The notes: a model not told the origin generated them from the letters alone. 54,851 nucleotides of DNA from Candidatus Hadarchaeum sp. (GCF_038871235.1 NZ_JAVZIN010000011.1:1-54851); one strand, 5' to 3'. Shown: positions 39,573 to 44,404, counted from the first letter of the stretch. Numbers and translations are program-made.

Positions 39573-40727
39573 GTGTTGCCAATGAAGAGCCGGTGGTTGC
39601 CGCTTGCGGTGATGACCTTTGCCCACTTCTTCAACGACTTCTTCCAGTTCATCCTGCCGCTGTTCCTGCCCCTCTTCATCCTCGAGTTCAACCTGAGCTA
39701 CTTTGAGAGCGGGGTGCTGCTGGGCGTCTACCTCGGCTCCGCGGTGGTCCTGAACGGGCTGCTGGGACACCTGGCCGACAAATACCGCAAACGGAAGCCG
39801 CTGATGTGCCTCGGGCTGGCCCTCTACGGGATCTCGGTCTCAGCGCTGCAGTTCGCCCAGGATTACCCCACGCTCCTGATTCTCTCCGTGATCATGGGAA
39901 TCGGATTCAGCTCCTACCATCCTCAGGCCACCAAGATCATCACCTCGCTCTACCCGAACCACAAGGGTAGATACATGGGGATTCATGGGGGCGGGGGCGC
40001 CATCGGCTTCTTCGCCTCACCGCTGCTGCTGGCCCCTCTAGCCTACTCCATCGGCTGGAGGCCAACCGTCTCCCTGCTCTTCATCCCCACCTGTGTCGCC
40101 GCCCTGCTGCTCTGGCTGGTGCTGAGGGAACCAGAGCCCGAGCCGAAGAGCAGCGGCAGGAGGATACTCTGGTGGCCGATAATCCTGCTCGGCCTCGTCT
40201 ACGGCCTCACCTTGTTCGTCTTCCGGGGCTTTACCAACTTCATGCCCGTCTACTTCTACTCGGTCCAAGGCAACACCGCGATCGAGATGGGTCTGCTCAG
40301 CAGCCTGGTCTGGGGGATGGGCGTGATTGCCGAGCCGCTGGGAGGCACGATATCGGACTACATCGGCCGGAGGAACACCTTCACCATCTCGCTGCTACTG
40401 CTGGCATTTTCCCTGCTGGGATTCTTGAACTCCTCAGGTCCGCTGGCAATCGCCCTCCTCATCCTCTTCGGCTTCTTCGGCCAGGCAACGCGCTGCGTGG
40501 GTTTGCTCTACTCCTCCGAGCTGGCCCCGCCGGAGAGCACCGGGATGTTTGTGGGCATCGTCTTCGGCATTTCGCAGGGGTTGAGCCTGATCTCCACGAT
40601 GACGGTGGGCTACATAGCCGACATCACCGGTTTCTACTGGGCCTTCATGGGCCTCGTCACCGTCGCCATAGTCGCCACGGCGCTGTCGCTTCGGATGAAG
40701 GACTCCAAAGCTAGGCAAACTCCCTGA
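39573..40727 (+). CDS. MFS transporter (Fsr-like)
   Basis: 'HF.ND', 'G.LAD', 'YHPQA', 'G..MGIH..GG', 'GG.ISD.IGRR'. Confidence 0.9.
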   Translation: MLPMKSRWLPLAVMTFAHFFNDFFQFILPLFLPLFILEFNLSYFESGVLLGVYLGSAVVLNGLLGHLADKYRKRKPLMCLGLALYGISVSALQFAQDYPTLLILSVIMGIGFSSYHPQATKIITSLYPNHKGRYMGIHGGGGAIGFFASPLLLAPLAYSIGWRPTVSLLFIPTCVAALLLWLVLREPEPEPKSSGRRILWWPIILLGLVYGLTLFVFRGFTNFMPVYFYSVQGNTAIEMGLLSSLVWGMGVIAEPLGGTISDYIGRRNTFTISLLLLAFSLLGFLNSSGPLAIALLILFGFFGQATRCVGLLYSSELAPPESTGMFVGIVFGISQGLSLISTMTVGYIADITGFYWAFMGLVTVAIVATALSLRMKDSKARQTP

Positions 40728-41553
40728 GGAGCTTCCGGATGGCTCCCGGGATCTGGGAATACTCCCTCACCCGATAGACTCTGCCTCGTCCCAGCTCAGC
40801 CAGTAGTGAACAGGTGCCGGCGTCGGAATGAGGAGACTCGACCATGATCACGCAGAGCTTGGGAAATCCAGACGCGACCCTCTCTGGGTGAAAGCCTTCT
40901 GAGCACCTGCCATCGGTGATTATTATTCCCAGCCTTTCTCCTGCCGCGGCCCTCTCCAGCTCGTTCAGCCCTGCCCTCAGTCCCTCCTCCATGTTTGTGT
41001 ACCCGAAAGCGTTGATCTCTAGAAGATCAGAGATGACCTGACGCACATCCCTCCTCTGCCCCATTGCCTTGAGAACCTGCGCCTGGGAGTTAAAGGTGAT
41101 CACGGCATAATTATCCTCCCTCAACTCGATGGCCAGCATCGAGGCTCCCACTGCAGCCACGGCCAGCTTCTCCCCAGCCATGGAGAGGCTGGTGTCCAGC
41201 ATCAGCGAGCAGGCCAGCTTCTTCCTCTCCCTCGTCTCCACCACGATGTCCTCGGCTCGGTAGTCCGGCTTACCGACGATCCGCTCGCAGGTGGCCTCGA
41301 GGTCCATCTCATCGGCGCCGAAGCGGTAGCTGTCCCTCCTCAGCCTGGCGGACCTCTTCGTGGGACCAAGGCTTCTCAGGGCCCGGCGCAGAATTGCCCT
41401 GATGGCTATCTTCCTGAGTTCCTCGCGCTGCCTCTCGTCGAGCCTGTTCTTGAGGTCAGGGTAGCTCCGCGCAATCAGCCAGCCGACATCTTCATTTTCG
41501 GCCTCGGTTGTCTTTCCGGAAAAAATCACGGTGTAAATCGTAGGTTCAGTCAA
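40711..41553 (-). CDS. vWA-domain protein (partner of MoxR ATPase)
   Basis: MIDAS 'LDTSLSM', 'G.TN...GL', 'IITDG'. Upstream 'MDLEAT' segment. TTGA overlap with the ATPase stop. Confidence 0.88.
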   Translation of the reverse strand: MTEPTIYTVIFSGKTTEAENEDVGWLIARSYPDLKNRLDERQREELRKIAIRAILRRALRSLGPTKRSARLRRDSYRFGADEMDLEATCERIVGKPDYRAEDIVVETRERKKLACSLMLDTSLSMAGEKLAVAAVGASMLAIELREDNYAVITFNSQAQVLKAMGQRRDVRQVISDLLEINAFGYTNMEEGLRAGLNELERAAAGERLGIIITDGRCSEGFHPERVASGFPKLCVIMVESPHSDAGTCSLLAELGRGRVYRVREYSQIPGAIRKLLREFA

Positions 41554-42437
41554 GTCTTTTTTTTTACTTCGAGAGGGGTGGTGATTCTATCCAATCCCTC
41601 TGCTCTTTTCAGGAGTGAATCAACGATCGCGTCGATGACCTCGGTGGGCTGGCTCCGGGCCTCCTCCCTCAGCTCGATTCTCGTGGGCAGGGCCAAGCGG
41701 CAGGCCTTCCTGACCGCCTCAACATCACCGCCCAGCTGGACAGCGAGCAGGGCCACGCTGATCGCGGCCCGGATCGAGGCCCCCCTCCTTATCTCAGGGT
41801 GCTCGCGGGTCGCCCTGACTATCCGAACGACCAGCCGGGCAAAGTTATCGTCCTCAATCCCAGTCCGCAGCTTCAGGATCTCGATCTCCTCGGCCTCAGG
41901 CTGGTAGCCCAGCGTCACCAGCTCGAAGCGGTCGCGCAGCGCCTCGGAGATGGGACTGGTGGCGATGAACTCCCTCGGGTTCTGGGTGGCAATGATGACG
42001 AAGCCATCGGCGGCGGTGATGCTGCCGATCTTTGGTATCTCGATCTTGAACTCGTCCATCGCGGGCAGCAGCACGTTCTGAACCGACTCCGGCATCCGGT
42101 TCAGTTCGTTGATGAAGAGGACGCCGCCGCTCTGCATCGCCATCGTCAGCGGCCCAGGAATGAAAGCCTCTTGAACGTAGCCCAGCTTTAGGACAATCGG
42201 CGGGTCGAACCAGCCGGTGAGCTTCTGCTCGGTGTACCTCTCATCGCCATCGACGCGGAAGACCTGCTTGTGCAGGTAGTTGGAAATGGCCAGCGCGATG
42301 ACGGTCTTGCCCACGCCGACCGGTCCCTCGATTAGGAGATGTCTGCCCGCCCGGACCACCGCCAAAGCCTGCTCCAGCTCCCTCTCCCTGCCGATGATGC
42401 CGAACCTCTTCTGAATCTCCCTGATCTCCTCGATCAT
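41550..42437 (-). CDS. MoxR-family AAA+ ATPase
   Basis: Walker A 'EGPVGVGKT', Walker B 'FINELNR', 'IATQNP', 'EALRDRF', 'GASIRA'. Confidence 0.92.
   Translation of the reverse strand: MIEEIREIQKRFGIIGRERELEQALAVVRAGRHLLIEGPVGVGKTVIALAISNYLHKQVFRVDGDERYTEQKLTGWFDPPIVLKLGYVQEAFIPGPLTMAMQSGGVLFINELNRMPESVQNVLLPAMDEFKIEIPKIGSITAADGFVIIATQNPREFIATSPISEALRDRFELVTLGYQPEAEEIEILKLRTGIEDDNFARLVVRIVRATREHPEIRRGASIRAAISVALLAVQLGGDVEAVRKACRLALPTRIELREEARSQPTEVIDAIVDSLLKRAEGLDRITTPLEVKKKT
41557..41565 (-). other. A9 slippery run (A-AAA-AAA / A-AAA-AAG) at the MoxR-vWA junction
   Basis: Minus strand reads GTA AAA AAA AAG ACT TGA. The -1 frame reads AAA AAA AAA GAC TTG ACT GAA, continuing into the vWA ORF. 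Confidence 0.65.
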
Positions 42438-42517: not shown

Positions 42518-42558
42518 CTTTATATCGGATGGTTGTGTTGGTTGATGGAGGCACGGCA

Positions 42559-43008
42559 ATGGGCGAACGCAGGTCAATCGGGCGGCTGATCTCCTACCTT
42601 TACCGGCTCACGGGAAGCTACCTTCACGAGAGGCTGAAGAAGCACGGCATCGGCAGCGGGCAGGTCCCTCTCCTGATGAGGCTCTATCGCGGCGACGGCA
42701 TCAATCAGGACCAGCTGGCGAAAGAACTCAGGATCGACAAGGCCACCTGCACCAGAGGGCTGAGGAAGCTGGAGCGGGCGGGCTATGTGAGGAGAATTTC
42801 TGATGAAGCCGACCGGAGGGCCTACAGAATCTGCCTGACCGAGAGGGCAAGAAAGCTGCAACCGACAGTCGAGAAGGCTCTGGAGGAGTGGACGAAGCAC
42901 CTCCTCTCCGGATTTTCTGATGAGGAGAGGGAAATGGTGTTCGACCTTCTGGAGAGGCTGGTCGCCAACGCCTCGGCATGGAAAGCGGGTGGCGGGAAAG
43001 ATGTCTGA
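42559..43008 (+). CDS. MarR-family transcriptional regulator
   Basis: 'GI..GQ..LL..L...DGI.Q..LA..L.IDKAT.TR....LE..GYV.R.....DRR'. GGAGG RBS. Confidence 0.93.
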   Translation: MGERRSIGRLISYLYRLTGSYLHERLKKHGIGSGQVPLLMRLYRGDGINQDQLAKELRIDKATCTRGLRKLERAGYVRRISDEADRRAYRICLTERARKLQPTVEKALEEWTKHLLSGFSDEEREMVFDLLERLVANASAWKAGGGKDV

Positions 43009-44404
43009 AGAATTGCTGGCGCCGGAGAAGAGCTACACGGAAGGGGTCAAGACGCTGCTGGGAGATCCAAAGAAGGCCATCGTCAAGCTCTCCCTACCCA
43101 TGATCATGGCGATGCTGATTCAGGCCACCTACAACCTCGCCGACGCCATCTGGGTGGCGGGCATCGGCGCCGACGCTCTGGCCGCCGTCGGCTTCGTCTT
43201 CCCCTTTTACTTCATCATGATGGCGATCTCAACCGGGATCGGGATCGGAAGCAGCTCGGCCATCGCCCGGAGAATTGGCGCCCGGGACAAAACCGGGGCC
43301 GACAGCGCTGCCACCAACTCCATCGTGCTGGTGGTGATAACCGCGGTGATGTTCACCGTGCCCTTGATCACCCTCACCGAGCCCATCTTTGGGGCAATCG
43401 GGGCCAGCGGGACGCTCCAGATGACCGTGGACTATGCCCGAATAATCTCAGCCGGGGCCATCTTCCTCTTCTTCAACAACGTCGGTAACGCGATCCTGAG
43501 GGGAGAGGGCGACGCCAAGAGGGCGATGTATGCCCTCGGGCTCGGGGCCGGGATGAACATCGTTCTGGACCCGATCTTCATCTACTCGCTGGGGCTGGGC
43601 GTTGCCGGGGCGGCGCTGGCCACCGTCCTCTCGATGGCCGTTTCCTCGGCCCTGCTGCTCTACTGGCTGGCGATCAAGAACGACACCTATGTCTCGATCA
43701 GGTTCCGGGGCTTCAGGTTCAACGGGAAGATACTGAAGGATATCCTCAGGGTCGGCATCCCCTCGTCGATAGTCCAGCTCTCGATGTCTATCTCGATGCT
43801 GGTGATCAACTTTCTCATCGTCCTCATCTCAGGGGGAGGCACCGATGGCGTTGCCGTCTACTCGGCGGGCTGGAGGGTGGCCACCGTGGGCACTCTGCCA
43901 CTGAATGGAATTGCCACCGCCGTGGTCGCCGTCTGCGGCGCGGCCTTCGGCGCCAGGTCCTACGAGAAGATCAGCATCTCGCACCTGCACGCGATTAAAA
44001 TCGGCCTGCTCATCGAGGCGGCCGTGACCGGGGCGACGTTCATCTTCGCCCCGCAGATCGCCGCCGTGTTCACCTACTCTGAGGGCGCGGCCCACCTCGC
44101 CGACGACCTGACGCTGTTCCTCCGGATCGCCTGCCTCTTCTGGCCCTTCGTCTCCTTCGGGATGCAGTCGTCGGCGCTGTTCCAGGCGGTGGGCAGAGGG
44201 ATCAGCTCCATGATGGCGACGATCCTGCGCGCGCTGGTGCTGACGCTGCTCTTCATCTTCATCCTGGCCTTCGTCCTCAACTTCGGGCTGATCGGCGTCT
44301 GGTGGGGCATCGTGGTGGCCAACATCATCGGCTCACTGGTGGTCTTCAGCTGGGCCAGGTTCTACGTGGGCGGGCTGATGCGGGCTAACAATTCCGCGCG
44401 ATGA
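43001..44404 (+). CDS. MATE-family efflux transporter
   Basis: 'P.KAI.KLSLP', 'YNL.D.IWV..IG..ALAA', 'RGEGD', 'NIVLDPIFI', 'GV.GAA.AT'. Confidence 0.93.
   Translation: MSEELLAPEKSYTEGVKTLLGDPKKAIVKLSLPMIMAMLIQATYNLADAIWVAGIGADALAAVGFVFPFYFIMMAISTGIGIGSSSAIARRIGARDKTGADSAATNSIVLVVITAVMFTVPLITLTEPIFGAIGASGTLQMTVDYARIISAGAIFLFFNNVGNAILRGEGDAKRAMYALGLGAGMNIVLDPIFIYSLGLGVAGAALATVLSMAVSSALLLYWLAIKNDTYVSIRFRGFRFNGKILKDILRVGIPSSIVQLSMSISMLVINFLIVLISGGGTDGVAVYSAGWRVATVGTLPLNGIATAVVAVCGAAFGARSYEKISISHLHAIKIGLLIEAAVTGATFIFAPQIAAVFTYSEGAAHLADDLTLFLRIACLFWPFVSFGMQSSALFQAVGRGISSMMATILRALVLTLLFIFILAFVLNFGLIGVWWGIVVANIIGSLVVFSWARFYVGGLMRANNSAR

Follow-up and report, generated by a model that had tools for sequence, protein, structure and literature searches.

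Poly-A runs at the junction of an AAA+ ATPase gene and a gene for a von Willebrand factor A (vWA) domain have a described precedent. In the 'magnesium chelatase' cluster of Antonov et al. 2013, 23 genes from Pseudomonas, Burkholderia, Delftia, Herpetosiphon, Methanocaldococcus and Methanococcus carry runs of 7, 9 or 11 A's and have fused homologues elsewhere; when runs were placed in E. coli reporters, 11 A's gave 63% shifting, nine gave 40% and seven gave 10% (PMC3711429). The cluster was later developed as the frameshifted chlD (Kuznetsov et al. 2022, PMC9227772). In Thermus thermophilus dnaX, the tau and gamma products share an N-terminus and are made at a set ratio, with stop codons close by in the other frames (PMC1088944, PMC5009743). 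A structural precedent is NorQD, in which the vWA domain inserts a finger into the pore of the ATPase hexamer; the MIDAS motif of such domains is defined as DxSxS-T-D (PMC13036017). Here we describe a locus of Candidatus Hadarchaeum sp. (GCF_038871235.1 NZ_JAVZIN010000011.1:1-54851; this whole stretch of 54,851 nucleotides is the window) in which an AAA+ ATPase gene and an out-of-frame vWA gene meet at a run of nine A's. A preliminary description of this DNA had appealed to the chelatase precedent, which has indeed been demonstrated with reporters in AAA/vWA gene pairs (PMC3711429).

Both open reading frames (ORFs) lie on the minus strand, and the ORF reading of the window places the vWA ORF in the -1 frame relative to the ATPase. 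The features of the locus are as follows.

41550 to 42437, minus strand: zero-frame ORF for an AAA_5-type AAA+ ATPase (Pfam AAA_5), 295 amino acids plus TGA, the proposed short product
42437 (ATG) and 41552-41550 (TGA), minus strand: start and stop of the ATPase; the N-termini of homologues fit this start
42303-42326, minus strand: Walker A motif GPVGVGKT, within the ATPase ORF
41557 to 41565, minus strand: A9 run on the sense strand (T9 on the plus strand), zero-frame reading GT[A AAA AAA AA]G, the proposed slippage site
41550 to 41553, minus strand: TTGA, in which the zero-frame stop TGA (41552-41550) overlaps TTG (41553-41551), the earliest possible start in the -1 frame
40711 to 41586, minus strand: -1 frame ORF with linker and vWA/MIDAS domain, C-terminal part of the putative 575-residue fusion; stop at 40713-40711
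41182 to 41196, minus strand: MIDAS DxSxS motif, DTSLS, residues 120-124 of the vWA ORF
Junction peptide predicted for the fusion, rich in lysine: EVKKKDLTEPTIY

The ATPase ORF ends CTC GAA GTA AAA AAA AAG ACT TGA, and its A9 run holds two heptamers of the X_XXY_YYZ type in phase with the zero frame, A_AAA_AAA and A_AAA_AAG. The -1 frame is open from 41586, just past a TAG at 41589-41587, and the vWA ORF comprises 280 amino acids when counted from TTG 41553. One extra A, or a -1 shift within the run, would on conceptual translation give a product of 575 amino acids with the junction ...EVKKK-DLTEPTIY.... The 14 nucleotides 5' of the TTG (GTAAAAAAAAAGAC) contain no GGAGG-like element by inspection, with no formal scoring of ribosome-binding sites. 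A mechanical listing of ORFs offers an alternative ATPase start at GTG 42554; it is disfavoured, the N-termini of homologues matching ATG 42437. The preliminary description had reported this ATPase 3' end with its run and overlapping heptamers, a -1 frame leading straight into the vWA ORF, a TTG with no recognisable ribosome-binding site and a fusion of about 575 amino acids, and re-reading of the DNA agrees on each point.

We propose that the locus is one functional gene, in which a NorQ/CbbQ/midasin-like AAA_5 ATPase and a vWA/MIDAS domain are interrupted, within a disordered linker, by a slippage-prone A9 run. Standard decoding would reach a stop five codons after the start of the run and yield the 295-residue ATPase. 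In a fraction of expression events the run would be read one base longer, taking decoding into the -1 frame and producing the 575-residue ATPase-linker-vWA protein. The main step would occur at transcription: after realignment on the T9 template, RNA polymerase would insert an additional A, so that the mRNA carries A10, and ribosomal -1 slippage on A_AAA_AAA/A_AAA_AAG may contribute. By analogy with NorQD, where a single vWA finger fills the pore, each AAA+ hexamer would be built from short and long forms together and would carry few vWA domains. Given this entry of the finger into the NorQ pore (PMC13036017), a ring may need no more than one vWA, and a cell would then have reason to produce ample ATPase with little of the fusion. 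The comparison of relatives makes recoding of either kind at the run, transcriptional or ribosomal, highly probable; transcription as the main route of slippage is a reading towards which the same comparison inclines us, with far less assurance.

Conservation of the run begins within the genus. In a survey of 41 related genomes, orthologue-level matches (74-88% identity) were confined to the same genus, where four of seven other genomes had one. All five same-genus loci carry the run at the same place: four combine A9 with a vWA ORF in the -1 frame, and the fifth (L045) combines A11 with a vWA ORF in the +1 frame. An A10 transcript would be in frame under both layouts. The candidate start of the vWA ORF varies among these congeners, being TTG, TTG, ATG, GTG or none.

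The wider family shows the same association. Searching 1.84 billion representative proteins with the vWA part gave 1,218 relatives; of the best 150, 113 have the size of a vWA protein alone, and 30 reach 500 amino acids or more and match in the C-terminal half. The vWA part of the window is 55-56% identical to three fused proteins of 582-587 amino acids. A scan of species-representative genomes gave 489 relatives, the best 80 of which were kept; the 80 loci typed are the window itself (L001) and L017-L096 minus L079, where the two matches stood in the wrong order. ATPase and vWA are fused in one frame in 63 of these loci, lie in different frames in 15 and share a frame with an intervening stop in two. 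In every one of the 15 out-of-frame loci a poly-A run sits exactly at the frame junction (A9 in 14, A11 in one). Four metagenome contigs close to a natively fused homologue, P0001, add two A9/-1 loci, one A8/-1 locus and the source contig of P0001 (L097), whose A9 is in frame and reads GTA AAA AAA AAT. Overall, the junction of all 18 out-of-frame relatives is occupied by a run of A8-A11, and the run is nine long in 16 of the 18. Runs of at least eight in the linker occur in 21 loci, comprising these 18 and three in which the run is in frame (A9 in L097, A11 in L059 and L096); none of the 21 has A10. In the fused bacterial loci L059:3818-3828 (Eubacteriales) and L096:3787-3797 (Desulfomonilaceae), the linker opens with A11. 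A stop follows the run within five codons in one of the shifted frames, the +1 frame of L059 and the -1 frame of L096, and the remaining shifted frame stays open for 17-26 codons. To judge by their reading frames, these two loci partly mirror the layout of the window in reverse, since slippage in them would give a short ATPase.

These comparisons support the earlier interpretation of the locus as a source of both a free ATPase and a fusion: the run is conserved in congeners and in all out-of-frame relatives, and natively fused homologues exist, both as the proteins of 582-587 amino acids and as 63 of the 80 typed loci. The preliminary description had presented this as recoding in archaea, which is too narrow, as four bacterial loci also carry the device.

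The 15 out-of-frame loci fall into three clades, each with a support of 100 (FastTree, 80 loci): Hadarchaeota (five loci), Sysuiplasmataceae-type Thermoplasmata (six) and bacteria (four, a clade that includes Poribacteria and Abyssobacteria). This requires at least three changes of frame state on the tree, among which gains are not distinguishable from losses. The codon phase of the run differs between groups: its first A is the third base of a codon in most Hadarchaeota loci, the second base in the Sysuiplasma clade as well as in L045, L098 and L100, and the first base in the bacteria. The length of the run is conserved regardless of this phase, with A9 occurring in phases 1, 2 and 3, and one A11 locus needs a +1 change. 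The context GGA-A8-CGA is common to L098:1253-1261 and L100:752-760, both Hadarchaeota-like metagenome contigs, and to Sysuiplasma-clade loci (e.g. L081:3893-3901), an agreement that may point to shared ancestry of the site in these archaeal clades or to its transfer from one to another.

A different kind of interruption was seen in two Thermoleophilia loci, L064:3820-3960 and L077:3860-4170. Both have an in-frame TGA in the linker within the shared context CCA AAA GyC TGA GC; L075, a fused relative, reads Leu at that codon. A GC-rich inverted repeat comes after the TGA in L064, and L077 has additional frame changes downstream of the TGA. Readthrough, a heptamer variant (C_CCA_AAA) of the same two-product logic, or sequencing error could each account for it.

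Downstream of the run, the vWA ORF evolves as a gene. Its ratio of nonsynonymous to synonymous substitution rates (dN/dS) is 0.10-0.11 between congeners and 0.03 in the sole unsaturated pair of the Sysuiplasma clade, similar to the 0.05-0.14 of the ATPase. Because its dN/dS of 0.03-0.11 is like that of the ATPase, we conclude from the alignments that the vWA ORF is a working gene under purifying selection. Synonymous divergence in the compared pairs ranges from 0.5 to saturation (from 0.67 upwards for the vWA ORF), yet the run is unchanged.

In several relatives this conserved region would be out of reach of its own start codon. The earliest ATG, GTG or TTG in the vWA frame lies 52 codons after the run in L045, past a conserved GW motif at codon 34; it lies 115 codons after the run in L093, 50 in L095, 36 in L090 and 30 in L091. 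Since the first start codon is so far downstream in these five loci, production of the conserved vWA region there needs a change of frame.

The A9 run is the sole homopolymer of at least eight within the window. Lys codons outside the run are AAG in 20 cases and AAA in one across the two ORFs (19 and one across the matched parts), whereas AAA makes up 43% of the Lys codons in long ORFs of the genome. This contrast argues that the A's of the run are selected as nucleotides, and it bears out the earlier remark that the run is out of character for these genes. In the 1.205-Mb genome as a whole, counts of A/T runs fall from 412 at length 7 to 55 at length 8 and 3 at length 9 or more, a drop steeper than base composition predicts. 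The sole A10 of the genome (T10 on the plus strand; G000 contig C12:904-913) lies in frame inside an ORF of about 430 codons; the frame does not change at this site, and at least one gene besides the present pair thus tolerates a long run. The last of the three, a run of nine at G000 contig C7:85085-85093, is overlapped by short ORFs only and is probably intergenic.

The run is also found in other assemblies. Contigs from three sequencing runs of three studies bridge A9 without an indel (X1, X3 record 7 and X5 record 14). X3 record 7 and X5 record 14 differ from the window by 9 and 20 other letters, respectively, and X1 may be the source of the window itself. On the question of A9 versus A10, which the preliminary description had singled out, independent assemblies thus agree on A9, at the level of contigs rather than raw reads. 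The sequencing runs that hold the locus are hot-spring metagenomes, and among named records Candidatus Hadarchaeum yellowstonense and other Hadarchaeota come closest. In a further run, X10, labelled metatranscriptomic and flagged 'probably DNA', the contigs do not bridge the A run; one ends at 41541, 16 bases short, which may reflect low depth or heterogeneity at the run.

Transcriptional slippage is favoured as the main route on the following grounds: (i) the length of nine is kept whatever the codon phase; (ii) L045, with A11 and a +1 layout, would not be joined by a -1 ribosomal shift, while loss of one A would join it; (iii) the loci with A9 or A11 in frame resemble Thermus dnaX, with a stop close by in at least one shifted frame; (iv) no conserved RNA structure was found downstream of the run; (v) the AAA codons of the run contrast with the AAG preference of 20:1 elsewhere in the gene pair. 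The structure search covered the downstream side only. In the window, 117 nucleotides fold no better than shuffled sequences (z = +0.83); an alignment of eight Hadarchaeota-clade sequences gave 0 predicted pairs, and one of six Sysuiplasma-clade sequences gave -6.68 kcal/mol with an unfavourable covariation term. Published work on bacteria fits a site of this length: nine A/T allow efficient slippage by RNA polymerase (PMC5009743, PMC1088944) and the RNA-DNA hybrid spans 9-10 bp (PMC5009743). Nine is also the length at which selection against A/T runs appears in many genomes (PMC1088944).

Several observations weigh against this proposal. An in-phase A_AAA_AAA or A_AAA_AAG is present in every -1 locus, and a ribosomal shift alone could explain 17 of the 18 out-of-frame loci. 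The part of a 2021 review of archaeal recoding cited here gives one proven case of -1 programmed ribosomal frameshifting and no case of transcriptional slippage (PMC8211752). Seven of the eight out-of-frame loci of the Hadarchaeota clade have an ATG, GTG or TTG in the vWA frame (3-6 codons from the start of the run in six, 20 in L098), and separate initiation in the window itself is possible because a TTG is available in the vWA frame. A single A9 is statistically unremarkable in this genome, where the 3 A/T runs of at least nine compare with 6.6 expected from base composition. The tree that separates the clades is approximate (FastTree) and many of its rows are of odd composition. Finally, the evidence for A9 consists of consensus contigs, which are compatible with minor A10 variants in the DNA.

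The alternative that best withstands the comparison, although we consider it unlikely, is purely ribosomal -1 programmed frameshifting, in which tRNA-Lys would slip on A_AAA_AAA/A_AAA_AAG of a faithful A9 mRNA, a mechanism of the kind put forward for chelatase genes. It draws on the in-phase heptamer, which occurs in the window and in all 17 loci that need a -1 shift; both heptamers are established shift sites (PMC3711429), and in the cited part of the review -1 frameshifting, shown for Saccharolobus fucA1, is the sole frameshift proven in archaea (PMC8211752). A zero-frame stop follows the run at a distance of 2-5 codons and could slow ribosomes. Such a mechanism would require no more than seven in-phase A's, yet 16 of 18 out-of-frame loci have a run of nine, whatever its phase, relatives already in frame also retain A9 or A11, L045 requires +1, and no conserved downstream structure was found. 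The preliminary description had spoken of a programmed -1 frameshift or slippage; recoding at the run remains highly probable, while a purely ribosomal -1 shift is less favoured than slippage during transcription.

Two ordinary genes would also account for the window: the vWA gene would start alone at TTG by termination-reinitiation, and the A-stretch would be only an unstructured start region or a Lys-rich tail. In its favour, six of eight out-of-frame loci of the Hadarchaeota clade have a start codon 3-6 codons from where the run begins, often overlapping the stop; NorQ/NorD and CbbQ/CbbO are separate proteins (PMC13036017), and 113 of the best 150 vWA representatives are of vWA-only size. 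We regard it as improbable. L045, L093 and L095 have no usable start before the conserved region and the starts of L090 and L091 come late, the exact length of nine recurs in three clades, the run uses AAA codons in a gene pair that otherwise prefers AAG 20:1, and 63 of 80 relatives are fused.

More improbable still is phase variation at the DNA level, in which replication slippage at a hypermutable run would switch the fusion on (in frame) or off (A9). Poly-A is slippery for DNA polymerase too (PMC3711429, PMC1088944), relatives show lengths of 8, 9 and 11 and both frame states, and A9 is known from consensus contigs only. On the other hand, A9 persists among congeners that have diverged at synonymous sites by 0.5 up to saturation, and it recurs in three runs from three studies; 18 of the 21 run-bearing loci would be 'off', yet the vWA ORF is under strong purifying selection; and the domains predict a cytoplasmic AAA+ machine, not a surface antigen. 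An assembly or sequencing error in a single fused gene with a true run of A10 can be set aside almost completely: homopolymers are error-prone on some platforms and the in-frame version would be an ordinary fused gene like those of the 63 relatives, but A9 stands without an indel in contigs from three studies, none of the 21 run-bearing loci from many projects has A10 while 16 have A9 out of frame, and many contig names are in the style of the short-read assemblers SPAdes or MEGAHIT, which suggests short reads.

The identity of the proteins bears on which known system the locus extends. The ATPase matches Pfam AAA_5 at 77.9 bits (gathering cut-off 22) over profile positions 1-139 of 139, and AAA_3 at a lower 53.9 bits; of the Pfam profile Mg_chelatase (PF01078) only positions 9-46 of 207 are matched. 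Among NCBIfam models GvpN fits best, its 82.8 bits falling well short of the cut-off of 266.8, and the ATPase also scores below the cut-offs of MadB (59.3 against 475), BchD-ChlD (28.4 against 499.55) and Cob-chelat-sub (31.1 against 779.45). CobS gives 43 bits with the family profile, and equivalence to any of the named members GvpN, MadB or CobS is not supported. Both the single protein and the family profile find midasin, NorQ, the MoxR-like 2R44 and CbbQ as the nearest solved sequences, midasin being the top sequence match among solved structures (113.8 bits for the window ATPase, 203 bits for the profile). No ChlI/BchI chain was among the best 60 solved sequences in either search. The vWA ORF matches VWA_2 at 39.9 bits (cut-off 27), and its matches to solved structures are weak, generic vWA hits with E of about 1e-3.

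Structure was compared using a model of the natively fused homologue P0001 in place of the window's own protein. The model has a mean predicted local distance difference test score (pLDDT) of 82 and a folded ATPase at residues 1-278. Beyond the ATPase come a linker (280-303) with pLDDT below 50, a helical stretch and then the vWA domain; the Lys run occupies residues 294-298, inside the low-confidence segment. Foldseek ranks 1-19 for this model are all NorQ/CbbQ chains (E from 8e-17 to 8e-13, TM-score on the target 0.77-0.83), with NorQ chains from NorQ-NorD complexes at the top, followed by CbbQ. These family scores, nearest solved sequences and fold, together with the failure to find CobN/ChlH, place the locus in the NorQ/CbbQ/midasin branch of MoxR-class ATPases with a vWA partner, and not among the chelatases. 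The earlier label 'MoxR' is correct in that the ATPase is MoxR-class and has a vWA partner, but Pfam places it with AAA_5 (NorQ/CbbQ/midasin-like) and not with the canonical MoxR family AAA_3.

A chelatase (ChlI/ChlD) identity was considered separately and is rejected on the family scores and on the search for CobN/ChlH. None of ten fused relatives reaches a chelatase cut-off. CobN/ChlH (PF02514) had 0 matches in the window's genome, which is 94.75% complete, whereas the same search matched five of 14 control genomes.

The neighbourhood gives little indication of a client. No neighbour is conserved across clades: shared clusters of flanking ORFs occur only within the large fused Thermoplasmata clade, and the ten largest clusters contain 0 out-of-frame loci. 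The clustered flanking ORFs are assigned by Pfam to a histidine-kinase-type ATPase, an aminotransferase, an arginine decarboxylase and a deoxyhypusine synthase, none of which suggests a client, and the comparison of flanking ORFs found no nitric oxide reductase or Rubisco context around the loci. The immediate neighbours in the window, judged by eye from their translations, are as follows.

39573-40727, plus strand: resembles a multi-pass membrane transporter, convergent with the vWA gene
42529-43008, plus strand: MarR-like small regulator, divergent from the ATPase
42920-44404, plus strand: MATE-like efflux protein following the regulator, divergent from the ATPase

Among the papers listed by a search of the literature on frameshifting, MoxR, von Willebrand domains and slippage, none describes such a locus, to judge by title and the start of the abstract; the 146 candidate clusters of PMC3711429 might include the family. 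Proven archaeal recoding is rare, being represented in the cited part of the 2021 review by selenocysteine, pyrrolysine and one -1 frameshift (PMC8211752). If the proposed mechanism is correct, the loci of Hadarchaeota and Sysuiplasmataceae would provide the first instance of an archaeal RNA polymerase undergoing programmed slippage at a cellular gene. The present locus offers a clean comparative case, with support from three clades and with natural controls in which the run is in frame, out of frame in either direction, or absent. The proposal would also suggest that selection acts on the ratio of ring subunit to vWA adaptor in these machines. Such genes are split by gene callers, 113 of the best 150 representatives of the vWA part being of vWA-only size, and fusions are therefore probably under-annotated in metagenome-assembled genomes. 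More tentatively, the family may be a widespread single-module 'mini-midasin', an AAA_5 ring with a MIDAS domain, which sets the number of MIDAS domains per ring by recoding in the linker and has evolved this several times with interchangeable devices. These may comprise an out-of-frame A9, where slippage would give the long form; an A9 or A11 in frame, with a stop close by in one or both shifted frames, where slippage would give the short form; and possibly an in-frame TGA.

Set against known systems, the proteins share with NorQ/NorD and CbbQ/CbbO an AAA_5 ATPase, a vWA partner with a MIDAS motif and, from the P0001 model, the closest AAA fold. Those systems are encoded by two separate genes and have a large multi-domain partner, whereas here the vWA domain directly follows the ATPase, fused to it or, as we propose, joined by slippage. 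Midasin/Rea1 likewise has AAA_5 and a MIDAS domain in one polypeptide, and the MIDAS domain of midasin docks on the ring (PMC13036017). Midasin differs in having six AAA modules in a chain of about 4,700-4,900 residues, while the present family has one module per chain, presumably assembled as a hexamer. Midasin is not known to undergo recoding.

In its slippage site the window resembles dnaX of Thermus thermophilus, where a sense-strand A9 is a site of transcriptional slippage (PMC1088944, PMC5009743). The dnaX layout is partly matched by the in-frame loci L059, L096 and L097, where a stop follows the run after a few codons in one or both of the shifted frames. In the window, unlike Thermus dnaX, the standard product is the short one and slippage would give the long one, which corresponds to the two-ORF dnaX type of PMC3711429; the protein family is also different, and the polymerase archaeal rather than bacterial.

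The organisation of the gene is most like that of the frameshifted chlD. Both have overlapping AAA+ and then vWA ORFs, natively fused homologues and poly-A at the junction (7-11 in chlD), both occur in archaea and bacteria, and in each case one gene is proposed to supply a small subunit as well as a longer AAA-vWA form. An AAA+ domain, a linker and a C-terminal vWA/MIDAS domain are found in each, in what in the window would be one recoded gene. The difference lies in the ATPase, which is of the ChlI/ChlD type in chlD but AAA_5 in the window, in a genome where no CobN/ChlH was found. The locus would thus appear to be a variant of chelatase chlD poly-A recoding in another ATPase family and, if so, would carry the chlD principle of 'two subunits from one gene' over to the NorQ/CbbQ/midasin branch of AAA+ proteins.

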